Source of the DNA: Gammaproteobacteria bacterium
GTDB lineage: Bacteria; Pseudomonadota; Gammaproteobacteria; Steroidobacterales; Foliamicaceae
Assembly (NCBI GenBank): GCA_026708965.1
Contig: JAPOTY010000020.1
Coordinates: forward strand, 4,017 to 68,016
Direction of reading: 5' to 3'
DNA length: 64,000 nt
Below are positions 2,046 to 64,000 of this stretch, piece after piece (position 1 is the first letter of the stretch; each line of letters opens with the position of its first letter). Below the pieces are notes generated by a model. The model was not told the DNA's origin. It saw nothing but the letters and a program-made list of their open reading frames with translations, and made no database searches. The position numbers were made by a program, and so were the translations under genes.

Positions 2046-2146
2046 AGGCGCTCGGCGGGTGTTTCGGAAGCGCCGAAGCCCGGCCCGCCCATGTGCTGCT
2101 TGCGAATCATCCCGTCATCCTAGTGGCTGGCGTTCCGCAGCCCGGC

Positions 2147-2821: not shown

Positions 2822-2839
2822 AATGCTGGCTCTCGTCGG

Positions 2840-4315: not shown

Positions 4316-4319
4316 CCGA

Positions 4320-4973: not shown

Positions 4974-5182
4974 GTAGTTGTGGATTTCACCCGAAACTCA
5001 CTACTCGTTTCAAGAGAAAATGACCGCTCGTTCAGACCGTGGCAGGCGGTGATGACATTGCGGCCTGCTCTCCTCGCGCACAAGCCAAAAACTATACTGA
5101 GAGCATAGCCTAGCTCCACACACACGGATTTAAGGAAGTCGCGAATGTCCTTCGCATATAATTTGGAGGTGAGTTGATACAC
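4970..5182 (-). CDS. small ORF upstream of the endonuclease (possible leader or controller; unproven)
   Basis: 70-aa ORF with a GTG start. Its TGA overlaps the endonuclease ATG as ATGA at 4970-4973. I saw no HTH signature. Confidence 0.2.
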   Translation of the reverse strand: MYQLTSKLYAKDIRDFLKSVCVELGYALSIVFGLCARRAGRNVITACHGLNERSFSLETSSEFRVKSTTT

Positions 5183-5205
5183 AGTTAGGCGGGGAGTTAT
5201 GCCGT

Positions 5206-7731
5206 ATGTGTTTTTCGTTTGATTCTTTCTTGCGTTCGAGCCAATCCATTACTGCGGCGAGCTTCGCCATTGCGGCGCTATTGGCCGCGCCGGGCGTTGC
5301 AGTTGCCCAGCAGGAACCCGGCGATGCCGCCGGGCCCATCGAAGAAGTGGTGGTGGTTGGCACCCGGGCGCTGCCGCGGTCGGTGGAGGAGTCCTCGGTG
5401 CCGGTGGACGTGATCGGCGCGGAGGACTTCGAGGATCAGGCCGGTTTCGAGATGACCAACCTGATTCGCGCTGCGGTGCCCTCGTTTCATGTCAGCGACA
5501 ACCCGTCGCGCGATCTCGCCGCCCTGCTGCGGCCCATCAACCTGCGCGGGCTGGCGCCTGATCACACGCTGGTGCTGATGAACAATAAGCGCCGCCATCG
5601 CGGGGCGGTGATCCAGTGGATTTCCAACGGCGCCTCGAACGGCGCCCAGGGGCCGGATATCTCGGCGATTCCGGCGATCGCGCTTAAGCGCATGGAAGTA
5701 TTGCGCGACGGCGCGGCCGCCCAGTACGGGTCCGACGCCATCGCCGGCGTGGTCAACTTTGTCCTCAAGGATGCCGCCGAGGGCATTTCGCTGCAAGCGC
5801 GCTACGCCGCCTATACCGAAAACTCCAGCGAGGACATGACCTCCGTGGCCGCCAATATTGGGTTGCCGCTCACCGCCAACGGCTTCGCCAATCTCAGCAT
5901 CGAATACGGCGAGTCGGCGCCCACCGACCGCAGCGTCCAGCATGCCCACGCCACAGCGCTCATCGGCTTAGGCATCCCGAACGTGGCCGTTCCCGCCAAG
6001 CCTTGGGGCTCGCCAACCGTCAACGACAGCATCAAGGCCGCCGCCAACCTGGGCTTGGATTTTGGCAGCGGCATGGCATTCTACGGCTTCGGCAACTACG
6101 CCAGCCGCGAGGTATCGACCGCGTTTTTCTTCCGCAGCCCCATGAACCGCAACGGCGTCTATAAAACCAGCGCCAACAAGTTCCTAGTGGGTGGCGAGGG
6201 CTGCGCTGACCGCTACGGCAATATCGACTCGACAGCGGGTAATCTGCTGTCCTTCCGCGATATGCTGGTTGCCGATTCCGGCTGTTTTTCGTTCGTTGAA
6301 ATGCTGCCGGAAGGCTTTACTCCGCAATTCGGCGCGAAGATATCCGACTTCTCCAGCGTTGCCGGCCTCAGGGGCGAGCTGGCCAGCGGCATTCTCTGGG
6401 ATGTTTCCGCCAGCATCGGCGAAAACAATCTCGACGCCTTCAACCACAATACCCTGAATGCCTCGCTGGGACCCGATAGCCCGCGCAATTTCGATATCGG
6501 CGAATACACGCAGCGTGAAACCAGCTTCAACGTGGATGTGTCGTGGCCGATCGATGTGGGCGCGTCCTCGGACCTCAACCTAGCCGCGGGGTTAGAAGCG
6601 CGCAACGAGGAATTCGAAATCACCAGCGGCGAGCGCGCCGCCTGGGAGGTTGGGCCGTACCAGCAATACGGCTTCGCCGCCGGCTCCAACGGCTTCGGCG
6701 GCTTCAATCCCGCCACTGCGGGAAGCTGGGACCGCGGCAACCTTGCCGGCTACGTGGACGTGGAGGTGAGCCCCACGGAAGTCTGGCGCCTCGGCGGAGC
6801 GCTGCGCTACGAGGACTTCGACGGCTTCGGCGGCACCACCAACTTCAAGCTCGCCACCCATTTGCGCCTCAACGACAGTCTGGCGCTGCGCGCCTCGATA
6901 GGCAGCGGCTTCCGCGCGCCCACGCCGGGCCAATCCAACGCGCGCAATCTATCGACGGTGGTCAACGCCGTCACCAACCAATTCGAGGAGCGCGGAACCA
7001 TCGGCTCCACCCATCCCGTGGCCTTGGCGCTGGGCGGTCGCGAACTTGATCCCGAGGAAAGCGATAATTTCTCCTTGGGATTGGTGTTCGCCGCCGAAAA
7101 CGGCTTCAGCCTGACGCTCGACTACTTCAGCATCGATATCGATGATCGAATCGCGCTGTCCGGGCTATTTGCCGTGACCGACGAAATCAAGCGGCAGCTG
7201 GTGGCGCAGGGGGTTCCCGAAGCCAACGAATTTACTTCGGTGCGCTTCTTCACCAACGATTTCGATACCGAAACCACCGGCTTCGACTTAGTGGCCGGCT
7301 ACGAATGGGACACCGCCAGCGGCAATGCCGGCATCGAATTTTCCTTCAACAGCACCGATACCGAAGTGGTGGACTCGTCCAGCATTTCAGCCGGCACCAT
7401 CAGGAACTTGGAGCACGGCTGGCCGGAAACGCGCTACAACCTCACGTACCGGCAGAACTTCAGGCAATGGGGCCTAGTGGCTCGCTACAGCTACTACGGC
7501 GACTGGTATGACGATCACGCCGGCGCGGATTTCGATGGCTACGGGCTTGCCGATATCCAGGTGCGCTACAACTTCGCGAACGGGCTGGCGCTTGCCGTGG
7601 GCGCCGAAAACGCGCTGGACGAGTATCCGGATGAAGCCATCAACTTCGGCAACGGTCGGCGCTACCCGCGCTATGCGCCGGCGGGCCACAACGGCGCGCT
7701 GATATTCGCCAAGCTCAGCTTATCGCTTTGA
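5206..7731 (+). CDS. TonB-dependent outer-membrane receptor
   Basis: 841-aa ORF with a signal peptide (AIAALLAAPGVAVAQ) and plug-region blocks (IEEVVVVGTRA, DVIGAEDF, VLRDGAAAQYGSDAIAGVVNFVLKD). A long beta-barrel-like Gly/Asn/Tyr-rich body follows. Confidence 0.9.
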   Translation: MCFSFDSFLRSSQSITAASFAIAALLAAPGVAVAQQEPGDAAGPIEEVVVVGTRALPRSVEESSVPVDVIGAEDFEDQAGFEMTNLIRAAVPSFHVSDNPSRDLAALLRPINLRGLAPDHTLVLMNNKRRHRGAVIQWISNGASNGAQGPDISAIPAIALKRMEVLRDGAAAQYGSDAIAGVVNFVLKDAAEGISLQARYAAYTENSSEDMTSVAANIGLPLTANGFANLSIEYGESAPTDRSVQHAHATALIGLGIPNVAVPAKPWGSPTVNDSIKAAANLGLDFGSGMAFYGFGNYASREVSTAFFFRSPMNRNGVYKTSANKFLVGGEGCADRYGNIDSTAGNLLSFRDMLVADSGCFSFVEMLPEGFTPQFGAKISDFSSVAGLRGELASGILWDVSASIGENNLDAFNHNTLNASLGPDSPRNFDIGEYTQRETSFNVDVSWPIDVGASSDLNLAAGLEARNEEFEITSGERAAWEVGPYQQYGFAAGSNGFGGFNPATAGSWDRGNLAGYVDVEVSPTEVWRLGGALRYEDFDGFGGTTNFKLATHLRLNDSLALRASIGSGFRAPTPGQSNARNLSTVVNAVTNQFEERGTIGSTHPVALALGGRELDPEESDNFSLGLVFAAENGFSLTLDYFSIDIDDRIALSGLFAVTDEIKRQLVAQGVPEANEFTSVRFFTNDFDTETTGFDLVAGYEWDTASGNAGIEFSFNSTDTEVVDSSSISAGTIRNLEHGWPETRYNLTYRQNFRQWGLVARYSYYGDWYDDHAGADFDGYGLADIQVRYNFANGLALAVGAENALDEYPDEAINFGNGRRYPRYAPAGHNGALIFAKLSLSL

Positions 7732-8736: not shown

Positions 8737-8853
8737 AACTTGCCCCCGCCAAGAATGGAGCGCTGATTATAAGATGCCCGATTCAAGCTGTGCCGCGCCG
8801 TTTCGCATCCATCGCTAGCATGGCCGTTGCGCTTACGCTGCGGCATTCAAGCC

Positions 8854-8862
8854 GGGGGGGGG
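8854..8862. repeat. G9 homopolymer in the ppk2 / amidohydrolase divergent intergenic region
   Basis: Read directly: gcc ggggggggg atgatg. Confidence 0.95.
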
Positions 8863-9000
8863 ATGATGAGTCGTTTCCTCGGGTTCGCGTGGCGAGCGCG
8901 GTGCGATAATGGCCGCAGTGAAACCCCAAGGCCCCCACTCATGGACAATCGAGCGTCAGGACAGTGTGCGCAACCCGCTGCATTCGATAGGGAACACGGG

Positions 9001-10113
9001 ATGAATAGGCGTTGCAGAACATGGAGCCTGGCCCTGCTCGCCGCCGTGCCGCTGGCGGTTGGCGCCTCAGATCGGCTTGAACTTGCGGATTTCGTGCCGC
9101 CGCATGACGGCTGCTATGATCGCAGCGCTTGGCCGCAAACCGCCGTGGTGGATACGCATGTCCATTTTCGGCCCTTCGGCGGGCCGGCGCATGCGTTCGA
9201 CGACGTGGTCGCATTCATGGAGCGCACCGGGGTGCGGTTCGCGAATGTTTATGGCATCGGCCAGATGCTGCCGTTGGGCTCGCCCTGCACCTACTATCTG
9301 GATTGCCCGGGGGTGCCGGTCAGGCCCACGCTCAAGAACGATTTTTCCAATGTTCTGAACCTGCTGGACAGCCCGCCTGATAACGTCCACCTTACGCTGT
9401 CGATGACTTTCTTCGATCTGGAACGGCCCGATAAGGTGCTGGAAGGCATCGCCCTCCTTGATGAGGAATTTCCGGGCCTGTTCCGCTGGGCGGGAGAGGT
9501 TAATCTGGTTAAGCAGGCGCTGTTCGGAAACAGCCACCGGGCGGTTCCCTTGGAAGCCATAGCGCGCTGGAAGCCCTTCATGTCGCTGCTGCGCGAGCGC
9601 GGCATCCCGTTCGCCGTCCATTCGGACTTGGGCAGCGACACGGAGCCCATGAAATACGCGGCCTGGATCGAAGAGGTCTTAAGGCTTTATCCGAACAATC
9701 CGATTGTGTGGATGCATATGGGCCTTTCACGCGAACTGACCCGCATTGATCCGCAAGCGCACTTAAGTTTCATGCGCTCTCTGATGGACCGCTATCCGCT
9801 GCTGATGGTGGATATATCCTGGCGCATCATCGACGACGCGCTATTCTCGAAGCCCGAGCTGCGCGGCGCCTACTTGGGCTTCATTGAACAATATTCCGAG
9901 CGTGTTCTGCCGGGCTCGGACTTCGTGGCCTCGGCCGACAAGAGCTTCGAGACCTACCGCGAGGAGTTGCGCGTGACCAGCTCCATTCTGGGCCATCTGA
10001 GCAACGAGGCTTTCCGCAATATCGCGCTGGGCGAGAATTACTTTCGCCTGTTGAGCTTGGATTTCTCCGCGCCGCCGATCTGCTCCTCGGCGCCCGCGCA
10101 ACCGGCAGGCTAA
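9001..10113 (+). CDS. secreted metal-dependent amidohydrolase-family protein
   Basis: ATG at 9001 lies in the frame of ORF 8827..10113 and gives a signal peptide (MNRRCRTWSLALLAAVPLAVGA). VDTHVHF is the usual amidohydrolase N-terminal metal motif, and a later H/D-rich TIM-barrel-like pattern (FAVHSDLG) is present. Confidence 0.6.
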   Translation: MNRRCRTWSLALLAAVPLAVGASDRLELADFVPPHDGCYDRSAWPQTAVVDTHVHFRPFGGPAHAFDDVVAFMERTGVRFANVYGIGQMLPLGSPCTYYLDCPGVPVRPTLKNDFSNVLNLLDSPPDNVHLTLSMTFFDLERPDKVLEGIALLDEEFPGLFRWAGEVNLVKQALFGNSHRAVPLEAIARWKPFMSLLRERGIPFAVHSDLGSDTEPMKYAAWIEEVLRLYPNNPIVWMHMGLSRELTRIDPQAHLSFMRSLMDRYPLLMVDISWRIIDDALFSKPELRGAYLGFIEQYSERVLPGSDFVASADKSFETYREELRVTSSILGHLSNEAFRNIALGENYFRLLSLDFSAPPICSSAPAQPAG

Positions 10114-29260: not shown

Positions 29261-30412
29261 ATGAGCGGAATCGAGAAATACACGGGCATGGTGATACAAC
29301 CGCACGTGGTGGTGGCTGAGGACCGCGACGGCATACAGCGCAATCTCGACCGGGCGCTGAACATGATCGACTTCGGCGTGGGCTACTTCTGGGAGTTGCC
29401 GGTGAAGCTGGTGGTGCTGCCGGAATACTTCCTGCAAGGCGTGACCACGCCCGGCAAGGGCGAACACGGCATCGACAGCTTCATGAAAAAGGCGATCACC
29501 TTCGACGGCCCGGAGATGCGCGCGCTCGGCGACAAGGCCCGCGAATACGGCCTCTACATCGCCGGCGGAGGCGTGGTGGAGCAGGTGCCCGAGTTTCCGG
29601 ACCGCTGGTTCAACGCCGCCTTCATTATCGGGCCTTCCGGCGATGTGATCCTGCGTTACCACAAGTGGCATATTCCCGCCAACATCGGCCTCGGCAGCAG
29701 CCCGCACGACTTGCTCGACGCCTACCGCGAAGTGTTCGGCGACGATATCAAGGATCTGTTCCCGGTGGTCGATACCGAAATCGGCAAGCTCGGCACCATG
29801 ACCTGCCACGACGGCTGCACGCCGGAGGTTTCCCGCGCGCTGGGCTACAACGGCTGCGAGGTGCTTTGCCATCCCACCGCGTTGCAGGAGATCGAGGGCG
29901 TGAGCGAGCCGTGGGACTTCTGGACCTTCACCCGCCGCACCCGCGCCCACGACAATATGTGCTATCTGCTGGGCTCGAACTGGGGCACGGTCGATTACGA
30001 CTTCTACCCCAAGGCCTTCTGCCCTGGCGGCTCGTTCATCATCGACTACACCGGCATGATGCTGCGCCACGCCAACTACCCGTCCGAGCAGGTGATCGGC
30101 GCCACCATCGATATCGAGTCGCTGCGCGAGCATCGGTCGCGCTGCGGCCATAATTGCTGGGTCGATGTGCGCACCGAGGGCTTCAAACAGATCTACGAGA
30201 ATCCGATCTACCCGCCCAACCAGTTTCCGCCCGGCCAGCCGCCGCGCACGCTGGCGGACAAGATGGGGCCGCTGGACACCGTGTTCCGCGATCTCTACGG
30301 GCGCGGCCAGTTCATGCCGCCCGCCGGCATGACGGCGGAGGACATGCCCAAGCGGCATCGCCAGCGCGTGCGCGCCGCCCAAGAGCGCGGCACGCTGAAG
30401 AAGAGCGACTGA
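29261..30412 (+). CDS. carbon-nitrogen hydrolase (nitrilase/amidase superfamily)
   Basis: Glu-Lys-Cys triad contexts VVLPEYF, RYHKWH and GTMTCHDG. It lies 10 nt downstream of the oxidoreductase. Confidence 0.8.
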   Translation: MSGIEKYTGMVIQPHVVVAEDRDGIQRNLDRALNMIDFGVGYFWELPVKLVVLPEYFLQGVTTPGKGEHGIDSFMKKAITFDGPEMRALGDKAREYGLYIAGGGVVEQVPEFPDRWFNAAFIIGPSGDVILRYHKWHIPANIGLGSSPHDLLDAYREVFGDDIKDLFPVVDTEIGKLGTMTCHDGCTPEVSRALGYNGCEVLCHPTALQEIEGVSEPWDFWTFTRRTRAHDNMCYLLGSNWGTVDYDFYPKAFCPGGSFIIDYTGMMLRHANYPSEQVIGATIDIESLREHRSRCGHNCWVDVRTEGFKQIYENPIYPPNQFPPGQPPRTLADKMGPLDTVFRDLYGRGQFMPPAGMTAEDMPKRHRQRVRAAQERGTLKKSD

Positions 30413-40772: not shown

Positions 40773-42498
40773 GGGTCAATTCCTCATGGCATGTGGAGTC
40801 GTCGCGCGCTTTTTCCTCTTCGGGGCTATGCACGCGCAGGACGGCGCCGGTCGAAGCGCTGGTCACGAAATGCGTGTAGCGCTCCAGCCAGCCGCCCTTG
40901 ATCTTGGGGCGGAACGGGGCGAGCCGCGCGCGGCGGCGTTCGAGTTCTTCGGAATCCACTTCCATATCCACGCGCCGCTCATCAAGATCGATCACGATGC
41001 GATCGCCCTCCTCAAGCAGCGCGATGGGGCCGCCGGCCGCCGCTTCGGGCGAAACATGGCCTATGGAAAGCCCGCGCGTGGCGCCCGAGAAGCGCCCGTC
41101 GGTGAGCAGCGCCGCGGAGGTGTCCAGGCCCATGCCCGCGATGGCGGAAGTGGGCTGAAGCATTTCGGGCATGCCGGGGCCGCCGCGCGGCCCTTCATGG
41201 CGGATCACCACCACATCGCCCTCGCATACTTCTCCGGCCATGATTCCGGCCACGGCCTCGTCCTGCGATTCGTAGATGCGCGCCCTGCCCTCGAAGCGTT
41301 GCAAATGCGGCGGCACTGCGCCCACCTTGATGATCGCGCCCTCCGGCGCCAAGGAACCGAACAGCACGCTCAACCCCCCGGTGGCCCGGAAGGCGGTGCC
41401 GCGATCGCGGATAACGGAGCGGTTTCGCACTTCCGCCTGCTCAAGTTGCTCGCGCAAAGTGCCCGCTACAGTCGGCCGGTCCGAGTTCAGAACGCCGATG
41501 GCGTCCAGTTCCTTGAGAATGGCCTGCACGCCGCCGGCCTGTTCCACATCCTCCATGTGAACGTCCGGCGTGGCCGGCGACACCTTGCAGATGTACGGCA
41601 CCCGGTCGGACATCTCGTTGATCCGGTGGAGGTCGTAGGGCACTTCGGCCTCATGGGTGGCGGCCAGCAGGTGCAGCACCGTGTTGGTGGAGCCGCCCAT
41701 GGCCATGTCCAGCGCAAATCCGTCATCAAATGCGTCCACGGTCACGATGTCGCGGGGTTTTAGGTCCTGCTCGACCAGCTCCACGATTCGCCGGCCGGCC
41801 TCTTTCACCAGCTGCTCGCGCCTGGGGTCCACGGCCAGGATCGAGCCGTTGCCGGGCAGCGCCAGCCCCAGCGCCTCGAGCAGGCAGTTCATGGAGTTGG
41901 CGGTGAACATGCCGGAGCAGGAGCCGCAAGTTGGGCAGCTGAGCTCTTCGAGCTGTTTCAGCTCCTCATCGCTCAGGTCGCCTTTCTGATGCCGCCCCAC
42001 GGCCTCGAAAACCGTCGCAAGGTCCGATTTGCCGCCTCCCGGAAGTTTGCCGGCCTTCATGGGGCCGCCGGAAACGAAAACCGTGGGAATATTGATCCGC
42101 AGCGCGCCCATCAGCATGCCGGGCACGATCTTGTCGCAGTTGGATATGCACACCAGGCCGTCTAGGCAATGGGCCAGCGCCATCGTCTCAACCGAATCGG
42201 CGATCAGTTCGCGCGACGGCAGCGAATAGCGCATTCCGATATGGCCCATGGCGATGCCGTCGTCCACGCCAATGGTATTGAACTCGAATGGCAGCCCGCC
42301 GGCCTCGCGCACGGCCTCGCGCGCCGCGGCGCCGAGCTTTTGCAAATGCACATGCCCGGGAATCAATTCCACAAACGAATTGCAGATGCCGATGAAGGGC
42401 CGCTCGAAGTCCTCATCCGAACGCACCACGCCGGTGGCGCGCAACAACGAGCGATGCGGCGCTCTCTCGATGCCGCGCTTTACGGTGTCGCTTCTCAT
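40765..42498 (-). CDS. ilvD: dihydroxy-acid dehydratase
   Basis: ATG 42498 ([19 protein letters not shown]...) lies within ORF 40765..42552. Blocks seen: [25 protein letters not shown] and [14 protein letters not shown]. Confidence 0.95.
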
Positions 42499-42697
42499 TA
42501 TTCCAAGCCTGCCGCGCCGACGCCGACTATTCGCGCCAGCCCAACCGAACATCTTACATCACCAATCCCTGAAAAATGCTGCTGTAGATGTTGTTTGTTG
42601 GGCACTGCTGCCGCTGATGAACGCGCCAGCCCTTAACGAAAGAGCTTGGCGCTAACGCTAGCGGGCCCTAGTTTTGCGGGGAGCCTGCTTCCCCTAA

Positions 42698-43027
42698 TTA
42701 CTCTTTCTGCGCGGGCGGCATGGGTTCCGGCGTATAAAATATCCGCAGCACTCTCGGCCTGTCGAAATAGGAACGCGGTATGGTGGTTCCGTCGTCCAGA
42801 ACCACTCCCCCCACGTTAGGCGGCAGAGAGGGCAGCCTGCTTAAAACCGGTTCCATCTCTGCCCATGTGCGTCCCTGCTCATCCCCAGGATCCCAAGTTT
42901 CCCAAGAGAAGTTCTCCCAAGCTTCGGCTGTAAACCCCGGGGGTGGCTTGCTCGACGCAAACGACCAATATCCCACCCCGGCGGCTAGTGCCAAACAAAG
43001 GAAAAATAGAAAGAACGCCGTTTTCAT
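42698..43027 (-). CDS. hypothetical signal-anchored protein
   Basis: 109-aa ORF with an N-terminal hydrophobic helix (MKTAFFLFFLCLALAAGVGYW). It lies 9 nt downstream of the 77-aa ORF in an AT-richer region. Confidence 0.45.
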   Translation of the reverse strand: MKTAFFLFFLCLALAAGVGYWSFASSKPPPGFTAEAWENFSWETWDPGDEQGRTWAEMEPVLSRLPSLPPNVGGVVLDDGTTIPRSYFDRPRVLRIFYTPEPMPPAQKE

Positions 43028-43036
43028 GCCACCAAT

Positions 43037-43270
43037 TTACGGCAAGTTGTAGCAGGCACCACCAGTATATGACGAGTAGGAGTTGAACCCCATAGAGTAA
43101 AGTTTCTGGGCGCAGGTCCCTTGTGCTTTTCCCGCCGAATCAAATGAGCATCCCCCAAGAAAATAGTATGTTGTCCCTGAGCAGGCGGGCTGCTTCCAAG
43201 CAGGGAACGCTTCAATTGCAGTAGGGGAAAGCGCAACGCCTTTCTGCCAGAGCCAATGCGGTGCCAGCAT
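43037..43270 (-). CDS. hypothetical small Cys/Gly/Ser/Tyr-rich protein
   Basis: 77-aa ATG-initiated ORF with four Cys residues in its C-terminal 48 aa. No family recognised. Confidence 0.3.
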   Translation of the reverse strand: MLAPHWLWQKGVALSPTAIEAFPAWKQPACSGTTYYFLGGCSFDSAGKAQGTCAQKLYSMGFNSYSSYTGGACYNLP

Positions 43271-43378
43271 TACGCGGACTCATTTTTTTCACTACTGGTT
43301 TCCTCGGAAAGTTGGAATTTACTATACACGTTTGTTTCGCTATGAATTTGAATACTTCATTGCCAGCCCCTCCACGCC

Positions 43379-43519
43379 GACGCGCCGCAGGCCAAGGGCC
43401 GGGTGGACCGGGCCAACCGGACGCTGCAGGACCGCTTGGTCAAGGAGTTGAGGCTGGAAGGCATGGGCTCCATGGAGGCGGGCAACGCCTTTCTCCCGTC
43501 GTTCATGGAGGACCACAAC
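43379..43519 (+). pseudogene. C-terminal remnant of a DDE (rve integrase-core) transposase
   Basis: The translation DAPQAKGRVDRANRTLQDRLVKELRLEGMGSMEAGNAFLPSFMEDHN matches the SPQ.KGR.ER.N.TLQDRLVKELRL signature, which I associate with ISNCY/IS1202-group transposases. About 47 codons of homology remain. An in-frame stop lies at 43349-43351, and no catalytic domain is present upstream. Confidence 0.6.
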
Positions 43520-43616
43520 TTGCTGGCGGGGCTATTGTGTCATCACCTTCAGTTGGCGGAGCTATCGCCAGATCTATATTATCGATCCTAACGGGATCGA
43601 TCTCGACAGTGATAGC

Positions 43617-43898
43617 GTGGACATGCGGATGAAATTCAAATATTTTCTCTTGCGGCCCGATTTATCGAGGCGCGAAAATTTTTTCCGTGCGCTCGCACCT
43701 GTGGGAGGATTGCTAGGGCTTGTTGCCATCTCTTTCGCCCCGATAAAGAGGGGCGATTGGTGGGGTGCCGTGCTTACCATACTGGCCGTTCTGGTCATCA
43801 TGGCACCCGTCTGGTGGCTTCAATACAGAGCCACAAAACGGCGGATAGAAAAAAAAGCCCAAGACCGTACCATCCGTCACCATGCGCCAGAAACGTAA
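43617..43898 (+). CDS. hypothetical two-TM small membrane protein
   Basis: 93-aa ORF with two clear hydrophobic helices, in an AT-richer region. Confidence 0.35.
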   Translation: MDMRMKFKYFLLRPDLSRRENFFRALAPVGGLLGLVAISFAPIKRGDWWGAVLTILAVLVIMAPVWWLQYRATKRRIEKKAQDRTIRHHAPET

Positions 43899-44127
43899 GC
43901 TTGCCTACGGCACTGTTCTTGTTTTCTTGCTGGTGGCTGCGACCGGTTGGCTTTTCTCCATATTCTTCGGCTTTTTCTTGGTGGAAGAGTTATATCGAGA
44001 CGGGCTTCTGAAGCGTGAATGGATAGCCCATCGCGCTACAGCCGCATTTATGGATATTGCCTTTTTGGCGGGAGGCTTGGGGATCGCTTGGTTCTTCGTG
44101 GGCCGGAAAAAATCATTTTGGCGATAA
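43882..44127 (+). CDS. hypothetical two-TM small membrane protein
   Basis: 81-aa ORF with two hydrophobic helices. It overlaps the previous ORF by 17 nt. Confidence 0.35.
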   Translation: MRQKRKLAYGTVLVFLLVAATGWLFSIFFGFFLVEELYRDGLLKREWIAHRATAAFMDIAFLAGGLGIAWFFVGRKKSFWR

Positions 44128-56394: not shown

Positions 56395-56438
56395 TGCATA
56401 ATATCCGTCCTTCTGATAATTTATGAGCATTTTATGCA
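56395..56438. promoter_or_regulatory. AT-rich palindromic half-sites at the argR start (candidate ArgR operator / divergent promoter region)
   Basis: TGCATAA (56395-56401) and TTATGCA (56432-56438) are inverted copies. The imperfect palindrome TGATAAtTTATGA lies between them at 56414-56426. This is the only AT-rich stretch in the 153-bp divergent intergenic region. Confidence 0.3.
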
Positions 56439-56880
56439 AAACGGCGCTCATCATGCGGCCCGCCGCCACGAATGCATCGCGGAGCTCATCCGCGGGCAGA
56501 GCGTGGGCAGCCAGGCCGAGTTGGGCGAGCTGCTTGCCCAGCGCGGCATTCGCGTTAGCCAATCCTGCCTGAGCCGCGACCTGTCCCTGTTGGGCGCGGT
56601 GAAACGGGGCCGGTCGTACACGCTCGTCCGCCCCGATCTTGCCGAAGACGACCGGCAGGCGTTGTCGGCCTACGCCCGCAGCGTGGAACAGGCGGGGCCG
56701 CACCTGGCCATCGTGCGCACCGCTACGGGCGCGGCGCAACGCATCGCGCTGTTTCTGGACCGCAGCGGATGGCGGGAGATTCTGGCGACGCTGGCGGGAG
56801 ACGACACCATTTTCGTGGCGACGCGCAATCAGGCCGAGCAGCGCGCCCTGCTGTCCCGCCTGCGCCGCGAGATGGGCTAA
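56434..56880 (+). CDS. argR: arginine repressor
   Basis: 148 aa. N-terminal winged helix (SQAELGELLAQRGIRVSQSCLSRDL) and the C-terminal oligomerisation block GDDTIFV. Confidence 0.9.
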   Translation: MQNGAHHAARRHECIAELIRGQSVGSQAELGELLAQRGIRVSQSCLSRDLSLLGAVKRGRSYTLVRPDLAEDDRQALSAYARSVEQAGPHLAIVRTATGAAQRIALFLDRSGWREILATLAGDDTIFVATRNQAEQRALLSRLRREMG

Positions 56881-56918: not shown

Positions 56919-58145
56919 ATGAGCAATTCACCCATCGTGCTGGCTTTTTCCGGCGGACTGGACACGTCGTTCTGCGTGCCTTGGCTGCGCGAAAAGCACC
57001 GCCGCCCGGTAGTGACTCTGACGGTCAACACCGGCGGAATCAATACAGCGGAGGCGGTCGCTCTTGAGCAGCGTGCCCTGGCGCTGGGCGCCGAGCAGCA
57101 TTTGCTGGTGGAGGCGCGCCCGCAGTTCTTCGACGAAGTGATCCGCCACCTGGTTGCCGGCAATGTGCGGCGGGGCCACAGCTATCCCCTGTGCGTGGGC
57201 GCCGAGCGCGGCATTCAGGCGCGGATCCTGGCACGCACCGCAAGCGAACTGGGCAGCGACACGGTGGCCCACGGCTGCACTGCGGCCGGCAACGATCAGT
57301 TCCGGTTCGAGATGGCCATGGGCGCGCTGGCGCCGGAAATCAAGGTGCTGGCGCCGGTTCGCGACGAATCGCTTCAACGCGCAACGCAACTGGAATACTT
57401 AAGGGAGCGCAACGCTCCGGAAATGCCGGCTGGCGGCGATTATTCGATTAATCGCGGCCTTTGGGGCGTGACCATCGGCGGTCGCGAGACGCTCACCTCG
57501 GCGGATTCGATCCCGGAATCCGCTTGGGTGCTGTCGTCGGGCGCGCTCGAAAAGCCGCCTGCCGAGGAGCCTCACGATCTGGATTTCGAGGCCGGCGTGC
57601 CGGTGCGCTGGAACGGCGAAGCCCTTGATCCGGTGGCGCTGATCGAGGCGGTGGAGGGCGCCGCGGCGCGCTTCGGAATCGGGCGGGGCATCCACTTGGG
57701 CGACACCATTCTCGGCGCCAAGGGCCGGGTGGCCTACGAGGCCCCGGCCGCGGAGGTTCTGCTGACCGCCCACCGCGAACTCGAAAAGCTCACATTGGGC
57801 GCCGGACAGTTGCGCGTGAAGGACACGCTGGCCGCCATCTATGGCGATCTCGTACATGAGGGCAAACAGCTGGATCCGGTATGCCGCGATATCGAGGCCT
57901 TCTTCGACAGCTCGCAGCAATGCGTGAGCGGGCGCGTCCGCCTCGTTCTGAGGCCCGCAAGCGTTTGGATACGGGGCGTGGAATCGGACTATTCCCTGCT
58001 TGCGGCCACGCGCGGCGTGTACGGCGAGGCCGCGGGGGAATGGACGCCGCGCGATGCGCTGGGAGCCGCCCGGGTGCTGGCGCTGCCCGGCCTTCTGCAC
58101 AGCCGGGTGGCGGCTTCAACCAGCAAGGATGGCGGCCATGCGTAG
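56919..58145 (+). CDS. argG: argininosuccinate synthase
   Basis: ATG 56919 (MSNSPIVLAFSGGLDTS...), with HGCTAAGNDQFRFE. Confidence 0.93.
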   Translation: MSNSPIVLAFSGGLDTSFCVPWLREKHRRPVVTLTVNTGGINTAEAVALEQRALALGAEQHLLVEARPQFFDEVIRHLVAGNVRRGHSYPLCVGAERGIQARILARTASELGSDTVAHGCTAAGNDQFRFEMAMGALAPEIKVLAPVRDESLQRATQLEYLRERNAPEMPAGGDYSINRGLWGVTIGGRETLTSADSIPESAWVLSSGALEKPPAEEPHDLDFEAGVPVRWNGEALDPVALIEAVEGAAARFGIGRGIHLGDTILGAKGRVAYEAPAAEVLLTAHRELEKLTLGAGQLRVKDTLAAIYGDLVHEGKQLDPVCRDIEAFFDSSQQCVSGRVRLVLRPASVWIRGVESDYSLLAATRGVYGEAAGEWTPRDALGAARVLALPGLLHSRVAASTSKDGGHA

Positions 58146-59199
58146 CGTGGTGGTCGATAAGCTCTCCTCGGTGGCGTCCGGGCTGGACCTGGGGCGCGAA
58201 ATCCGTGTGGGCGAAGAGATTCCCAGCGAGGAAGGCGTGCTCGTTGCGGTGGAAGTGCTCAACGACAAGTCGTCCTACAACCGGCTGGAGCTGGCCAGCG
58301 GCCGGATGGCCCGGGTGCGCAGCGGAGATATTGTGGTGGGCGCTCTGGGGCACAGGAAAGCCTTGTTTGGGTACGCGGGACATGTTCCGGAATCGGTCAA
58401 GCGCGGAGACGTGCTGCAGTTGCTCAATATTGGCGGCGTGCTGGGCGTGTGCGATTCGGTGAACGCCACCATGGGGCCGCCTTTCGATGTCCGGGTGCTG
58501 GGCGTGGTCTTGGAGTTCCCTTATCTGGGCGAACGCGTGGGCATACCGGCGAGGGTGGGCGGCGAGGCGCTGCCGCATGAAGATTCCGGCAGCCTCGACC
58601 TCGGCGGCGTGCCTGTGGTGACGCTGGCGGGCACCACCATGAACTCAGGAAAAACGGCGGCGGCCAGCGCGATCATCGGCCGCTTGCGGCATGAAGGCTA
58701 TGTGGTGGACGCATTCAAGGCCACCGGCGTGTCGTTGCGCCGCGACATCCTCGCGATGGAGGACGCGGGCGCGCGCAACACCGCGATTTTTACCGATTTT
58801 GGCGTGGTCAGCACCGCTTCGCATAATGCGCCAGGGCTGGTGCGGGCCATGCTGCGGCGGATGGCGGCCGCCGGGCCGGACCTGATCCTGTTTGAATTGG
58901 GCGACGGCATACTCGGGGCCTACGGTGTGGAGGCGATTTTGGCGGACGAAGGCATACGCTCGGCGATCACCTGCCTGCTGCTTTGCGCCAGCGATCCCGT
59001 TGCTGCCTGGGGCGGCGCCGTTCTTTTGAAGAAGGAGTACGGAATCGAATTAGCCGCCGTCACCGGCCCCGCCACCGACAACCAGGTAGGGATCGATATC
59101 CTGCGGCAGCGTGTCGGCGTGCCTGGCTACAACGCGATTACCCATAGCGCCGAATTGGGCCAGTTCGTGGCGCGCCGCCTGAATCTGTCACGATCATGA
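58138..59199 (+). CDS. uncharacterised protein with a DTBS/CobQ/DUF1611-like P-loop, embedded in the arg operon
   Basis: An ATG at 58138 (or 58129) overlaps the argG stop. Its TGA overlaps the argC ATG (ATGA at 59196-59199). The motif LAGTTMNSGKT has the GTxTxxGKT spacing of dethiobiotin-synthetase-type P-loops. It is preceded by an N-terminal region of about 170 aa (the first ~120 aa beta-rich-looking) and followed by LFELGDGILGAYG. Confidence 0.75.
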   Translation: MRSVVVDKLSSVASGLDLGREIRVGEEIPSEEGVLVAVEVLNDKSSYNRLELASGRMARVRSGDIVVGALGHRKALFGYAGHVPESVKRGDVLQLLNIGGVLGVCDSVNATMGPPFDVRVLGVVLEFPYLGERVGIPARVGGEALPHEDSGSLDLGGVPVVTLAGTTMNSGKTAAASAIIGRLRHEGYVVDAFKATGVSLRRDILAMEDAGARNTAIFTDFGVVSTASHNAPGLVRAMLRRMAAAGPDLILFELGDGILGAYGVEAILADEGIRSAITCLLLCASDPVAAWGGAVLLKKEYGIELAAVTGPATDNQVGIDILRQRVGVPGYNAITHSAELGQFVARRLNLSRS

Positions 59200-60245
59200 G
59201 TGTTCCTGCCGTCGTTTTGGGCGCTTCGGGATACGTGGCCGGCGAGCTTTTGCGCCTTCTTGCCGGCCATCCGGAGTTTCGGATCGCAGCGGCGTTTTCA
59301 CAGAGCAACGCCGGCGCCCCGGTGGAATCCGTGTTCCCCAACCTCACCGGCCTTTGGCCCGGCTTTCGCTTCGCTTCCCCGGTTGAACTTGAGGAAGCGC
59401 TACAGCAGCCATGCGCCGTTTTTTCCTGCGCGCCGCATGGGGCCAGCGCAGCGCTGGTGGCCAAGGTATTGAAACTGGCCGGAGGGCGCGATGCCGAGGT
59501 TCGGATCGTGGATGTGTCGGCCGACTTCCGCTACGCTGCCGCCAACGCCTACGAGCAGGTGTACGGCTCGGCGCATGGCGCTCCCGAGCTGCTGCCGATA
59601 TTTTCCTGCGCGCTTCCGGAGCATCGGGCCAAAGCGGACACGCCGCATATCGGGCACCCCGGATGTTTCGCCACCGCCTTGCTGCTCGCTTGCGTGCCGC
59701 TGATGCGATTCGGGCTCACCGACAGCCCGCTTTTCGCCAGCGGCGTGACCGGCAGCACCGGGGCTGGCAAGCAGCCTTTGGCAACCACTCATCATCCGAT
59801 TCGCCATTCCAACATGTTCGCTTACCGGCCGCTCAAGCACCGGCATGCTCCGGAAGTGGAAGAGGTTTGCGCGGCCGTGAGCGGGCAGCGCCCGCGATTG
59901 CGGTTTGTGCCGCATTCCGGGCCGTTTGCCCGCGGGATCCATCTCACGATGCAGGCCGCGCTGAAGCCTTCGCTGGGCGGGCGGCAGGTGAGAGAGGCTT
60001 TCGAGCAGAGCTACGCCGATGCGCCGTTTGTGCATGTGACGGAATCGCCGCCGCGGCTCAAGAATGTGACAGGCGGCAATCATGCGCATCTTTCGGTGTC
60101 GGTGGAAAACGGTTCCGTGGCGGTTTTCGTGGTGCTGGACAACTTGGTGAAAGGCGCCGCCGGCGGAGCAGTCCAATGGGCCAACCGCCTGTACGGATTC
60201 GATGAGACGGCCGGTTTGGCCGCGCCGGGCCCGGCATGGACATGA
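59196..60245 (+). CDS. argC: N-acyl-gamma-glutamyl-phosphate reductase
   Basis: VLGASGYVAGELLRLL and the catalytic Cys context GHPGCFATA. Confidence 0.93.
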   Translation: MSVPAVVLGASGYVAGELLRLLAGHPEFRIAAAFSQSNAGAPVESVFPNLTGLWPGFRFASPVELEEALQQPCAVFSCAPHGASAALVAKVLKLAGGRDAEVRIVDVSADFRYAAANAYEQVYGSAHGAPELLPIFSCALPEHRAKADTPHIGHPGCFATALLLACVPLMRFGLTDSPLFASGVTGSTGAGKQPLATTHHPIRHSNMFAYRPLKHRHAPEVEEVCAAVSGQRPRLRFVPHSGPFARGIHLTMQAALKPSLGGRQVREAFEQSYADAPFVHVTESPPRLKNVTGGNHAHLSVSVENGSVAVFVVLDNLVKGAAGGAVQWANRLYGFDETAGLAAPGPAWT

Positions 60246-61420
60246 CCGCGCCGCAGTCCGGCGGCAAGTCCCGGGATGCGCGGCATCTTGAAGCCGCGCA
60301 TCTGGCGCAGGTGTACTCCCAGTTTCCTTTCGAGGTGGTGGCCGGTGAAGGCGCTTACCTGATTTGCGCCAACGGCCGCCGGCTTCTGGACCTGTACGGC
60401 GGACACGCCGTCTGCGCTTTGGGATACGGCCATCCGCGCCTGCTGGCGGCCCTCAAGCGCCAGGCGGGCGAATTATTGTTCGCCAGCAACGCGATGGCCC
60501 TGCGGGTGCGCGCCCGGGCTGCCGAAAAGCTTGCCGGGTTTGCTCCTCGGGGATTGAACCAGGTGTTTTTCGTGAATTCGGGGGCCGAAGCCAATGAGAA
60601 CGCTCTGCGTCTGGCCTGCCGGCTTACGGGGCGCTCCCGCGTCGTTGCCCTGGAGCACGCGTTTCATGGACGCACGGCTGCCGCCGCCGCAGTCAGTTGG
60701 GGCGCCCGGGACCGCTGGTACGGCTTTCCGCAAACGCCGTTTGACGTGGCGTTTTCGCCGCGGGATGACGCTGCGGCCTTGGCGTCGTTGATCGACGCGA
60801 ATACGGCTGCCGTTATCCTGGAACCGATTCAGGGCCTAGGAGGCGCGTTTCCGGTTCGCAATGAGGTTCTGGCCGCCGCGCGCGAAGCCTGCGATGCCCA
60901 AGGCGCCTTCTTTATCGCCGATGAAGTGCAGTGCGGAATGGGTCGCAGCGGCCTGCCCTTCGCCGTTTCGCACGCCGGCGTGATGCCTGACATCATCACC
61001 ACCGCCAAGTCGCTGGGCGCCGGTTTCCCCTGTGCGGCGCTGCTGATGCGCGAGGACTGCGCCGCGCAGCTTGCAAAAGGCGATCTCGGCAGCACCTTCG
61101 GCGGCGGGCCGCTGGCCTGCGCCGCCATCGAAGCCGTGCTCGACGTGATGCGCGAGGAGCAGCTTCCTCAAAGGGCGGCGGAGCGCGAACGGCAGATACG
61201 CGCCACCTGCGCGACGGGTCCGGTGGAGGCCATACAGGGCCGGGGCCTGTTGCTGGGGCTGAAATGCAAGGACGGCGCGGTCGCTGTGCGCGACCAACTG
61301 CTTGATGCGGATATTCTCGCTGGTGCCAGCGCCTTGCCGGACTGGCTGCGTATCATGCCTCCGCTTAACCTTCACGAGAACGAGGCAGCCCGGTTAGCTG
61401 CCGCCCTTGGACCGCTTTGA
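60236..61420 (+). CDS. argD: acyl-ornithine aminotransferase (class III PLP aminotransferase)
   Basis: The start is at 60236 or 60242 (ATGA overlap with the argC stop). Blocks seen: GHAVCALGYGHP, DEVQCGMGRSG and TTAKSLGAGFP (PLP Lys). Confidence 0.9.
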   Translation: MDMTAPQSGGKSRDARHLEAAHLAQVYSQFPFEVVAGEGAYLICANGRRLLDLYGGHAVCALGYGHPRLLAALKRQAGELLFASNAMALRVRARAAEKLAGFAPRGLNQVFFVNSGAEANENALRLACRLTGRSRVVALEHAFHGRTAAAAAVSWGARDRWYGFPQTPFDVAFSPRDDAAALASLIDANTAAVILEPIQGLGGAFPVRNEVLAAAREACDAQGAFFIADEVQCGMGRSGLPFAVSHAGVMPDIITTAKSLGAGFPCAALLMREDCAAQLAKGDLGSTFGGGPLACAAIEAVLDVMREEQLPQRAAERERQIRATCATGPVEAIQGRGLLLGLKCKDGAVAVRDQLLDADILAGASALPDWLRIMPPLNLHENEAARLAAALGPL

Positions 61421-61454
61421 CGGCCCATGGCTTGCGCTTACCAGGAGCAGCCCA

Positions 61455-62471
61455 ATGAGTGACATCAATCGATTCGACGATCTGGCCGATTTCGCGGCCG
61501 ATCAGATATCGGCGCTGCTGGGCCTCTCGGCCCGACTTGAGCAGCACCCGGAGCCCGAGGCGCTGAAAGGCAAGGTTCTGTCGCTGCTTTTTCTCAATCC
61601 CTCGCTTCGAACGCTGGCATCATTTCAAGCGTCCATGACGCGGCTGGGCGGTGGCGCGTTCGTGATCTCTCCGGAGATGTCGATTCATGGCCTGGAGACC
61701 CGGCCGGGAATCGTGATGGACGGGGCGGCCGCAGAGCATGTCCGCGAGGCGGTTCCGGTTATCGCGTCGTATGGCGATGCCTTGGGACTGCGCGCATTCG
61801 CTGAGCGTCGCGACCTGGTGGAGGATCTGGAGGACCGGGAGTACCGGAATCTCGCCGAGCTGGTGTCCACGCCGCTGATCAACATGGAATCGGCGATCAA
61901 TCATCCCTGCCAGAGCCTGGCGGACTGGAAAACGCTCGATGACCTTGGCATTTCCGAACGCGGAGGCAAGTTCGTGCTCAGTTGGGCCTATCATCCGTCG
62001 GCCCTGCCTTTGGCGGTGCCGTCGGCCACCATGCAGATGGCGGCCATGCGGGGCATGGACGTGACCGTGCTGCGACCCGACGGCTTTGAACTGCCTCCTC
62101 TGGTGATGGACAAGGCGCGATTGCTTGCCGAGCGCTCCGGCGGCTCCATTAGGGAAACGGACGACCGGAGCGAGGCCATGGAGGGCGCCCATGTGCTCTA
62201 TGCCAAGTCTTGGAGCTCCACCCGCCACTATGGCGACAAGCATTCCGATTATCAGTTGCGCAACCGGCACGAGGACTGGTGCGTGGCTGAAGCTTGGTTT
62301 CAGCAGGCCGCAGCCGACTGCCGGTTTATGCACTGCCTGCCGGTTCGCCGCAACGTGGTGGTGAGCGAGGCGGTGCTGGATGGACCGCGCAGCGTGGTCG
62401 TGGCCGAGGCGCGCAACCGCATGTGGGTGCAGATGGCTGTTCTCTACGCCATGCTCGGGCCGGGGTTGTGA
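61455..62471 (+). CDS. argF': N-acyl-L-ornithine carbamoyltransferase (ArgF' type: acetyl- or succinyl-ornithine specific)
   Basis: ATG 61455 is preceded by aggag. FLNPSLRT, INMES..HPCQ, SWAYHP, YAKSW and HCLPVRRNV align ungapped over long stretches with my memory of Xanthomonas N-acetylornithine transcarbamylase rather than classical OTCase. Confidence 0.85.
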   Translation: MSDINRFDDLADFAADQISALLGLSARLEQHPEPEALKGKVLSLLFLNPSLRTLASFQASMTRLGGGAFVISPEMSIHGLETRPGIVMDGAAAEHVREAVPVIASYGDALGLRAFAERRDLVEDLEDREYRNLAELVSTPLINMESAINHPCQSLADWKTLDDLGISERGGKFVLSWAYHPSALPLAVPSATMQMAAMRGMDVTVLRPDGFELPPLVMDKARLLAERSGGSIRETDDRSEAMEGAHVLYAKSWSSTRHYGDKHSDYQLRNRHEDWCVAEAWFQQAAADCRFMHCLPVRRNVVVSEAVLDGPRSVVVAEARNRMWVQMAVLYAMLGPGL

Positions 62472-62491: not shown

Positions 62492-63406
62492 ATGGGATTC
62501 GGCGCGCTGCGGGCCGCCGCGCCGTATCTGCGCCTGTACAAGGACCGCGTCTTCGTGGTCAAGCTCGGCGGGGAGGTGCTGAGCCGGACCAGCCGCATAG
62601 AGGCGCTGGTGGAGCAGGCAGCGGTGTTGCAGGCCCTTGGGGTTCGCGTGGTGATCGTACATGGCGGCGGGCCGCAATCGACGCAACTGACCAGCCGGCT
62701 GAAGCACTCCGCGCGCATGGTGGCTGGCCGCCGCGTGACCGGTTCCGAGGAACTTCAGGTGGCCAGTTATGTGCTCAACGGCGAGGTCAATACCCGTTTG
62801 CTTTCCGCCTGCCGGGCCTGCGGCGTGCCGGCCGTGGGCTTGTCCGGAGTCGATGCGGGTCTGGTGATGGCCCGCCGCCGCCCGCCGATGAAGGTGGAGG
62901 GCGCGGGCGAGGAGCCGGTGGATTTCGGTTTTGTGGGCGATATAGAGGAAGTGGATCCAGCGGTGCTGAAAATGCTGCTGAAGAAGCGCTTTCTGCCCAT
63001 CGTGAGCCCGCTCTCCGCCGACTCAAGAGGCGGGCTTCTCAATATCAATGCCGATACGGTGGCTGCGGCGGTGGCGACGGCGATTGGGGCCGAGAAACTG
63101 GTGCTCACCATGGCCGCGCCGGGCATTCTGTCCGACCGTGCGGATGCTTCCACGCTGTTGTCGCACTTGGACCTTGCCGGATTGCGGCAACTGCGCGCCG
63201 ATGGGGCGCTGGCCGATGGAATGCTGCCCAAGGCCGCCGCCATCGAAGCCGCGATCACGGGCGGCGTGCCGCGGGTCCACCTGGTTTCCGGCAGCACCGA
63301 AGACGCCCTGCTGCGCGAGGTGTTCACCAACGAGGGTTGCGGCACCTTGGTGGTTCGCAGCATCGATGCCCTGTCGGCTGCTGAGCAGGAGGCTGGGCGG
63401 CAATGA
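62492..63406 (+). CDS. argB: N-acylglutamate kinase (no fused GNAT domain)
   Basis: ATG 62492. Alternatively, GTG 62468 overlaps the argF' stop as GTGA. Blocks seen: VVKLGGEV, VIVHGGGPQ and NINADTVAAAVA. The protein of about 300 aa ends right after the kinase fold. Confidence 0.9.
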   Translation: MGFGALRAAAPYLRLYKDRVFVVKLGGEVLSRTSRIEALVEQAAVLQALGVRVVIVHGGGPQSTQLTSRLKHSARMVAGRRVTGSEELQVASYVLNGEVNTRLLSACRACGVPAVGLSGVDAGLVMARRRPPMKVEGAGEEPVDFGFVGDIEEVDPAVLKMLLKKRFLPIVSPLSADSRGGLLNINADTVAAAVATAIGAEKLVLTMAAPGILSDRADASTLLSHLDLAGLRQLRADGALADGMLPKAAAIEAAITGGVPRVHLVSGSTEDALLREVFTNEGCGTLVVRSIDALSAAEQEAGRQ

Positions 63407-64000
63407 CCCGGCTGTGGGACAAGGGCGTGGAGCTGGACGAGACGGTGCTGCGCTATACGGCAGGCGAAGACCATCGGCTGGACGGTCGGCTGGTGGCGCA
63501 CGATGTGCGGGCCTCGATTGCCCATGCCGGGATGCTGCGCGCGGCAGGCTATCTGTCGAGTCCGGATCATGCCGGAATCGTGCGCGGCCTTGAGGCATTG
63601 GCCAAGGAGCACGCCGCCGGCGAATGGACGATCTCCTTGGAAGAGGAAGATGTCCATACCGCGCTGGAGCAGCGCTTGGTGGCGCGTGTGGGCGAGGCCG
63701 GCAAGCGGGTGCATCTGGGACGCTCCCGCAACGATCAGGTGCTGGCGGCTCTGCGGCTGTATCTCAAGGATGCGGCCGGTGGCCTGCGGCAGGCTGCCGG
63801 GGCTGTGGCGGATGAACTGGATAATTTGGATGCGCGCGAGGGCGGCCTGCCTTTGCCCGGCTATACGCACATGCAGCAGGCCATGCCCAGCAGCGTGGGG
63901 CTTTGGGCCCGCGGCTTTGCCGGGGAACTGCGCGACGATGCGGCTGGCATGGGCGCGGCCATGCGCCGCCTGGACCGCAATCCGCTGGGCAGCGCCGCAG
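63403..64000 (+). CDS. argH: argininosuccinate lyase, 3' end beyond the window
   Basis: ATG 63403 overlaps the argB stop (ATGA). My own translation gives MTRLWDKGVELDETVLRYTAGEDHRLD...HLGRSRNDQV...GYTHMQQAMPS. The frame stays open to the window edge, so it is absent from the ORF track. Confidence 0.88.
   Translation, partial: MTRLWDKGVELDETVLRYTAGEDHRLDGRLVAHDVRASIAHAGMLRAAGYLSSPDHAGIVRGLEALAKEHAAGEWTISLEEEDVHTALEQRLVARVGEAGKRVHLGRSRNDQVLAALRLYLKDAAGGLRQAAGAVADELDNLDAREGGLPLPGYTHMQQAMPSSVGLWARGFAGELRDDAAGMGAAMRRLDRNPLGSAA

Follow-up and report, generated by a model that had tools for sequence, protein, structure and literature searches.

Which enzyme supplies the first step of arginine biosynthesis where none is recognized? 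Many prototrophic bacteria appear to be without the first arginine enzyme, and the question is raised again by a stretch of 64,000 nucleotides from a gammaproteobacterium (assembly GCA_026708965.1, contig JAPOTY010000020.1, positions 4,017 to 68,016 of the forward strand), here called the window. It contains an arginine gene cluster with the order argR-argG-X-argC-argD-argF'-argB-argH, in which gene X (58138-59199, + strand) encodes a protein of 353 residues that automatic annotation calls 'hypothetical'. We propose, with a probability of about 0.72, that X is an N-succinyl-L-glutamate synthase, i.e., the otherwise missing first step of the pathway. A preliminary description, made from the letters of this DNA alone, had found an N-acylglutamate-forming role attractive, and this is the function that the context evidence appears to support best.

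The gene is closely built into the cluster. Its ATG at 58138 falls within the end of argG (GGC CAT GCG TAG), giving an 8-nt overlap at 58138-58145, and an AAGGA Shine-Dalgarno-like motif lies upstream of it. Its stop codon, TGA at 59197-59199, is joined with the argC start codon at 59196 in an ATGA overlap (59196-59199). Both overlaps, read directly from the sequence, bear out the coupling to argG and argC that the preliminary description had reported for an open reading frame (ORF) of about 353 residues. A longer, TTG-initiated ORF from 58000 was ruled out as the gene, since the homologues all begin at the M-R/K-S/T-V N-terminus. The G+C content at third codon positions is 0.79, similar to that of the adjacent genes. 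A protein search gave at least 6859 homologues at E<=1e-3, and in a representative library the family amounts to 1680 clusters at 50% identity. Among the matches listed, the name given by the source is always 'hypothetical protein' and none carries a precomputed Pfam domain. Mean column identity is 72% across relatives that are 64-89% identical to X. The lineage is an uncultured gammaproteobacterial one, represented also by the metagenome-assembled genome (MAG) r_cahl1, whose homologue is 97% identical to X.

The genomic context of the homologues carries most of the argument. A scan of one genome per species gave at least 583 loci, the best 80 of which (L001-L080; 60-97% identity) are referred to here as the close loci. 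These are MAGs in 79 of the 80 cases and are mostly labelled Gammaproteobacteria, including Steroidobacteraceae and 'Chromatiales', with a few labelled Gemmatimonadetes, Longimicrobiales, Rhodospirillaceae, or Pseudomonadota. X is a near-obligate neighbour of argC, lying directly upstream of it in every close locus with a long enough downstream flank (76 of 76). The commonest order is argR-argG-X-argC-argD-argF'-argB; reduced clusters have argR-X-argC-argD-argB (L006-L012) or X-argC-argB (L071, L078, L079). In nine Steroidobacteraceae MAG loci, X (63-65% identity) is the sole unassigned gene of the cluster.

Distant loci came from a further protein search, whose query was a profile built on distant branches (about 30-40% identity). 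The preliminary description had tied its idea to an association with arg genes elsewhere, and this was found in several phyla: the distant bacterial homologues lie within arg clusters in nine of nine loci. The order argG-X-argC-argD-argB-argF-argH-M20 occurs in a 'Gottesmanbacteria' MAG (L081) and in an unlabelled locus (L096), argR-argG-X-argC-argD-argF-argB-M20-argH in Elusimicrobia (L088), and argG-X-argC-argD-argF-argB-M20-argH in another unlabelled locus (L097). Myxococcota have argG-X-argC-argD-argF-…-argB-M20 (L089) and Planctomycetes M20-argH-…-argG-X (L087), and three further unlabelled loci have carA-carB-argG-argF-X-argC-argB-(AstE-like::ArgH)-argD (L090), argR-X-argC-argD-argF-argB (L091), and argG-…-X-argC-argD-argF (L092). 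The coupling also persists at this distance, with an X/argC overlap of 4-14 nt in all eight distant bacterial loci having argC downstream. As to the labels, a complete eight-gene arginine cluster such as that of L081 (JACPKY010000002.1, a 1.1-Mb contig) is unusual for Candidatus Gottesmanbacteria, or the label is wrong.

Six of these clusters encode their own deacylase, of the M20 type in L081, L088, L089, L096, and L097 and as the AstE-like::ArgH fusion in L090. In each of them every step has a gene except the N-acylglutamate synthase, and X is the sole unassigned gene; because the clusters are otherwise complete, a synthase role is favoured for X and a deacylase role is disfavoured. The preliminary description had regarded a deacylase or a regulatory role as equally open, a parity that does not survive the presence of an M20 or AstE-type deacylase beside X in six distant clusters. 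In NCBIfam, the M20 protein of L088 is nearest to the acetylornithine deacetylase/ArgE-DapE models, below threshold. The L090 fusion (L090:9869-12076; 735 residues) joins an AstE/aspartoacylase-family domain to argininosuccinate lyase within the carAB-argG-argF-X-argC-argB cluster. Its first domain is nearest to succinylglutamate desuccinylase, again below the NCBIfam threshold, and the fusion is a candidate N-succinylcitrulline desuccinylase joined to ArgH.

The nature of the acyl group is suggested by the carbamoyltransferase of the same cluster. The window argF' gene (61407-62471, +) encodes a knotted N-acylornithine carbamoyltransferase, identified by NF003384 (score 329.7 vs. a cutoff of 288) and by alignment to 3L02 and relatives. 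In this family, Glu92, Asn185, and Lys302 mark the acetyl enzyme, while the succinyl enzyme has A/S/P/V/Q, P, and V/I/E at these positions (Shi et al. review, PMC4581275). At X. campestris positions E92, N185, and K302 the window enzyme has A, P, and V, and in the PDB it is matched best by 3L02, the X. campestris enzyme with the E92A mutation. Each of the 63 X-linked ArgF' proteins compared has a residue other than Glu at 92 (A, P, Q, T, or I), Pro at 185, and V, A, E, or I at 302. Owing to this succinyl-type signature, N-succinylated intermediates are predicted for the pathway, and N-succinyl-L-glutamate as the product of X. Thus, of the N-acetylation mentioned in the preliminary description, the N-acyl part is retained and the acetyl group is replaced by a predicted succinyl group. 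NCBIfam names the window protein N-acetylornithine carbamoyltransferase despite its A/P/V signature, a name that is probably wrong for this whole X-linked group. In L090, the AstE-like part of the ArgH fusion would fit a desuccinylase.

A gene fusion also links X to the early steps. The protein P0220 (626 residues) combines an X domain with an amino-acid-kinase (ArgB) domain and recurs, identical, on four contigs, the three shown coming from three metagenomes; this recurrence indicates a real X-ArgB fusion. Classical N-acetylglutamate synthases have a kinase-plus-synthase architecture, which the fusion parallels. The fusion gene (L093:6077-7957; also L094 and L095) stands alone outside arg clusters, divergent to an arginase-family gene. 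Its gene call begins inside the N-domain, and the true start may be further upstream. Two other apparent fusions were discarded. P0176 (687 residues, X plus ArgC) is a frameshift artefact whose sequence is a low-complexity out-of-frame translation, and P0259 (ArgG C-terminus plus X) was set aside on the same suspicion.

A different setting is found in DPANN archaea. Homologues from Aenigmatarchaeota, and relatives 55% identical to a Nanohaloarchaea-labelled protein, lie outside any arginine cluster. In two such regions (L083:7001-12260 and L085:5984-11316) the neighbours of the X homologue are RimK-family glutamate ligases, two or three in number, and a Peptidase_C39_2 protein, which in L083 also has weak mechanosensitive-channel Pfam matches. 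L085 adds an AstE/aspartoacylase/DoeB-like deacylase and has a separate mechanosensitive-channel gene nearby. The gene set may represent a pathway for an N-acyl-(oligo)glutamate solute. This neighbourhood, which again appears to indicate N-acyl-glutamate chemistry, is counted here in favour of the synthase assignment.

The X protein consists of two domains, whose coordinates all refer to the + strand. Residues 1-158 (58138-58611) form an all-beta N-terminal domain in the AlphaFold2 model mc4af52210f06 (pLDDT 93.1), with beta-strand throughout to about residue 126 and then a linker to about residue 158; the preliminary description had already judged the first 120 residues or so to be beta-rich. 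Invariant in 43 N-domain sequences (alignment A4) are S11, G33, Y47, E51, R73, G78, P84, G99, G100, and G122. A Foldseek search with the N-domain model gave no match in the PDB (best E 1.6) or BFVD (best E 0.63). Residues 159-353 (58612-59196) form a dethiobiotin synthetase (DTBS)-like P-loop domain of the SIMIBI class, assigned by Foldseek and by profile comparison with the PDB. The full-length AlphaFold model m1936453b4a91, built from close relatives, has a pLDDT of 73.7 and is confident solely at residues ~160-350. Its best Foldseek match in the PDB is DTBS (1dbs, E 5.8e-7; also 1dts and 3of5), followed by GTPases of the signal recognition particle (SRP) type and HypB. The X sequence alone had no PDB match at E<=10; a profile of 54 diverse homologues (alignment A2, down to 28% identity) matched best to M. 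tuberculosis BioD (3fgn, E 1.9e-4), in an alignment that spans the P-loop to the conserved Lys.

These searches agree with the DTBS-type P-loop recognized in the preliminary description, and the motif blocks that it had listed are indeed present: VVTLAGTTMNSGKTAAASAIIGRL at residues 160-183, KATG at 194-197, FTDFG at 218-222, and LFELGDGILGAYG at 251-263. Within the first block, the Walker A motif or P-loop GTTMNSGKT occupies residues 165-173 (58630-58656). K172, T173, and K194 of X align with K15, T16, and K37 of BioD with identical spacing; the invariant K194 (58717-58719), 22 residues past the P-loop Lys, thereby corresponds to the catalytic Lys37 of DTBS. The Walker-B-like ELGDG follows at residues 253-257 (58894-58908). 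In the alignment of 54 homologues, G33, P84, G100, G171, K172, K194, G197, G211, G222, E253, G255, D286, and G310 are invariant, and T173, D203, D220, and D248 are kept in at least 90%. This pattern is as would be expected for a working nucleotide-phosphate site, in which E253 would be the equivalent of DTBS E115, and E253 and D220 the equivalents of the Mg2+ ligands of DTBS. A Cys105/His72 catalytic pair, also considered, was dropped since it is conserved in the gammaproteobacterial clade alone and not family-wide.

With regard to known families, no Pfam or NCBIfam model reaches its threshold for X, the matches being weak ones at the P-loop to MobB and CobQ; no well-characterized unrelated family was assigned to the protein that the preliminary description had called uncharacterized. 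Among the 54 relatives, sub-threshold Pfam matches were to CbiA (30), MobB (29), DUF1611_C (22, best E 1.3e-5), and AAA_26 (8). The likeness to DUF1611 that had been noted in the motif order is therefore of a limited kind. X has no match to PF07755 at E<=1, and the 22 relatives remain below its gathering score of 25 bits; three of these matches, inspected one by one, score 17-21 bits and extend over only some 40 residues around the P-loop. Membership was rejected on the lack of any PF07755 or PF17396 match and on the N-domain, which is all-beta and not Rossmann-like as described for DUF1611_N. X shares the P-loop superfamily and the motif spacing with DUF1611 and is not a member of it.

Several characterized or proposed enzymes can be compared with X on this basis. 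The D-glutamate N-acetyltransferase DgcN (7XRJ), which we take to belong to the DUF1611 family (PF07755 plus PF17396), shares the glutamate N-acylation predicted for X and a C-terminal DTBS-like P-loop domain with the GTxxxxGK[T] spacing. However, apart from the N-domain, DgcN acts on D-glutamate with acetyl in catabolism, whereas X is predicted to act on L-glutamate with succinyl in biosynthesis. BioD is the best structural and the best PDB sequence match; besides the aligned P-loop Lys/Thr and Lys37, it also has a Glu after the Walker-B-like strand. Unlike X, with its extra 158-residue beta domain, BioD consists of one domain, about 225 residues long, that closes the ureido ring on a carbamate, and X has no biotin context. 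Neither TIGR00347 nor PF13500 matches X, and the relatives match weakly (AAA_26 in 8 of 54 with a best E of 1.8e-4, bioD at 16.8 bits vs. a cutoff of 83.3). The GNAT-type synthases, ArgA and BT3761/Cabys_1732, the latter being the proposed N-succinylglutamate synthase of Bacteroidetes, have the same predicted reaction and pathway position, and BT3761 likewise feeds a succinyl-type ArgF'. They have no homology to X, in which neither Pfam nor NCBIfam finds a GNAT acetyltransferase domain at E<=1, and the relation would be one of non-orthologous displacement. An M20 or AstE_AspA catalytic domain was likewise not found in X by Pfam or NCBIfam.

The same functional prediction is already available in a preprint. 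Price et al. (bioRxiv 10.1101/2024.10.14.618325, a 2024-2026 preprint) predicted that ACG33_RS14135 (A0A127FCT3), from the arginine cluster of Steroidobacter denitrificans, is an N-succinylglutamate synthase. This organism is a prototroph without ArgA, and also without ArgE and a linked deacylase. Their arguments are the conserved neighbourhood, the position of some homologues next to argE candidates, and the finding that homologues of ACG33_RS14135 never occur in genomes with ArgA homologues. They also report a Foldseek comparison with DgcN 7XRJ (E 1.4e-7, with 5.6 Å as the root-mean-square deviation) and find that, of 70 neighbours, 90% have one of A, P, S, and V at position 92 of ArgF'. The authors call the role a prediction and report no experiment for it (all bioRxiv 10.1101/2024.10.14.618325). 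We infer, from taxon and context and not from a sequence alignment, that X belongs to the same family, because the nine Steroidobacteraceae MAG loci carry X as their sole unassigned gene. An exact-sequence cluster look-up of these orthologues gave just 'hypothetical protein [Steroidobacteraceae bacterium]'. Both proteins are hypothetical, have the same neighbours (argR/G/C/D/F'/B/H) and a succinyl-type ArgF', and receive the same prediction; X differs in coming from another, uncultured gammaproteobacterial lineage. The DTBS-type residues, the N-domain, the ArgB fusion, and the DPANN context described here for the family are not in the preprint. The synthase conclusion was reached independently here, and the idea, for which the preliminary description had put X forward as a candidate, is not new: X is a further member of a recently predicted family.

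In the proposed route, X would succinylate L-glutamate at its alpha-amino group, and the N-succinyl-L-glutamate so formed would pass through ArgB, ArgC, ArgD, the succinyl-type ArgF', a desuccinylase not linked to the cluster, ArgG, and ArgH. X would be a non-homologous replacement of GNAT-type ArgA, combining an all-beta N-domain not described before with a P-loop domain of the DTBS type, and the substrates would presumably bind at the interface of the two. Two chemistries can be envisaged. X could be a succinyl-CoA:L-glutamate N-succinyltransferase whose P-loop holds the phosphates of coenzyme A (CoA), or an ADP-forming ligase in which succinate is phosphorylated and then attacked by the glutamate amine. 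Within the synthase assignment we lean slightly, at little better than even odds, to succinyl-CoA over succinate plus ATP because DgcN, an acetyltransferase, and every known ArgA enzyme provide the analogy. An ADP-forming amide ligase acting via the acyl-phosphate of free succinate, with no CoA thioester, is on the whole a serious minority possibility, well short of even odds. It would account for the invariance or near-invariance of the Walker A Lys/Thr, the DTBS K37 equivalent, and E253, for DTBS being the closest structure and PDB sequence, and for the lack of the Rossmann-like N-domain of DUF1611/DgcN. Moreover, the branch comprising DTBS, CobQ, and CTP synthase, like the Mur-type ligases, has the acyl-phosphate route as its ancestral chemistry, and the DPANN homologues adjoin ATP-grasp glutamate ligases in a setting where succinyl-CoA would be an unlikely metabolite. 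On the other hand, the characterized N-acylglutamate synthases all use acyl-CoA, DgcN is described as an acetyltransferase, and no adenine- or guanine-specificity motif was identified in X. A conserved P-loop is also no proof of ATP use; DUF1611 proteins keep a P-loop too. A bolder version of this reading is somewhat doubtful: X as a CoA-independent, ATP-dependent succinate-L-glutamate ligase of a new enzyme class, pairing a DTBS-like P-loop domain with a new all-beta domain for the substrate, that starts the arginine pathway from free succinate and thereby directly re-uses the succinate released by the desuccinylase, with DPANN relatives priming an N-acyl-oligoglutamate that RimK-type ligases extend.

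Two further functions would leave the first step to another protein or merge it with a later one, and we consider both to be improbable. X could be the missing N-succinylcitrulline (or N-acylornithine) deacylase, or, as a variant, a bifunctional or ArgJ-like trans-succinylase that returns the succinyl group of the late intermediate to glutamate. This assignment is very unlikely. It draws on the lack of a deacylase gene in the clusters of the window and the close loci and on the parallel absence of ArgE from S. denitrificans (Price et al.), and the variant has the appeal of closing both local gaps at once, with no other support. Against it stand the six distant clusters that encode X together with a deacylase of their own and the fact that the tightest links of X are to the early-step genes argC and argB, as in the X-argC-argB clusters and the X-ArgB fusion. 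The P-loop nucleoside triphosphatase (NTPase) fold is, moreover, without precedent as an amidohydrolase, and C105/H72, a conceivable Cys/His acyl-enzyme pair, is not conserved across the family. An even slimmer chance is given to an accessory NTPase, i.e., a metallochaperone, an assembly factor, or a SIMIBI/G3E-like switch comparable to MeaB, UreG, or HypB, that serves an arginine enzyme. Such a role is suggested by the SIMIBI class of X and by SRP GTPases, HypB, and MobB among its structural and sequence neighbours, but otherwise complete clusters would then have no gene for the first step, and the DPANN homologues exist with no arginine enzyme to serve. X retains the catalytic Lys of the DTBS type, inspection of the aligned sequences by eye showed no NKxD or CxCC-type motifs, and ArgA homologues are reportedly never found in X-carrying genomes (Price et al.), all of which fit an accessory protein poorly.

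The assignment of X as an N-succinyl-L-glutamate synthase also has points that weigh against it. The window and the 80 close loci have no M20 or AstE-type deacylase gene within or beside the cluster, so that in the clade of the window two steps, and not one, are without a gene at the locus. ArgA and ArgJ were not found among 20 large ORFs scanned, a search whose scope, 64 kb of the genome, is too small to speak for the genome as a whole. None of the sequence methods used (Pfam, NCBIfam, PDB sequence and profile comparison) links X to any acyltransferase, and DgcN 7XRJ is not among the best 50 Foldseek matches of the full-length X model, possibly owing to the mediocre quality of that model. A CoA-dependent transferase has no obvious need of an invariant NTPase-type active site. 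The succinyl assignment draws on a residue rule from two characterized enzymes, and the synthase role is a prediction for every family member, in the preprint as well as here.

The other genes of the window cluster are all on the + strand. The arginine repressor gene argR (56434-56880; Pfam Arg_repressor and Arg_repressor_C, TIGR01529) comes first, followed by argG (56919-58145), the argininosuccinate synthase gene (Pfam Arginosuc_synth and Arginosuc_syn_C; TIGR00032 score 271 vs. a cutoff of 268.2). Downstream of X lie argC (59196-60245; TIGR01850 score 292.9 vs. a cutoff of 233.6) and argD (60236-61420), an N-acylornithine aminotransferase gene with Pfam Aminotran_3 and with acetylornithine/succinylornithine transaminase models as the best NCBIfam matches. 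After argF', argB (62492-63406) encodes an N-acylglutamate kinase with the kinase domain only, recognized as AA_kinase by homology to annotated neighbours in other loci and without a fused GNAT domain. The argininosuccinate lyase gene argH starts in overlap with the argB stop and is represented by its 5' part (63403-64000), cut by the window end. In the MAG with the 97%-identical homologue, a 148-residue ORF (L001:9501-9947) directly follows argH; by eye it resembles a PaaI-type hotdog thioesterase and contains GLLHGGASAVLAESLGS, and the corresponding region lies beyond the window end. Elsewhere in the window, an Amidohydro_2 gene is found at 8827-10113 and a carbon-nitrogen hydrolase gene at 29261-30412. 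The stretches 2001-6000 and 42001-44000 have a distinctly lower G+C content (0.55-0.56 vs. ~0.63 elsewhere) and may be acquired DNA.

If X is indeed the synthase, a recurrent gap in the arginine pathway would be closed. The acyl donor (succinyl-CoA vs. succinate plus ATP) and the unmatched fold of the N-domain are the parts that could still surprise. 'N-acetylornithine carbamoyltransferase' annotations beside X would probably be wrong, and the succinyl-type route, first proposed for Bacteroidetes, would extend to Gammaproteobacteria, Elusimicrobia, Myxococcota, Planctomycetes, and others. The family would then represent a clean case of non-orthologous displacement, in which a GNAT enzyme has been replaced by a P-loop protein.

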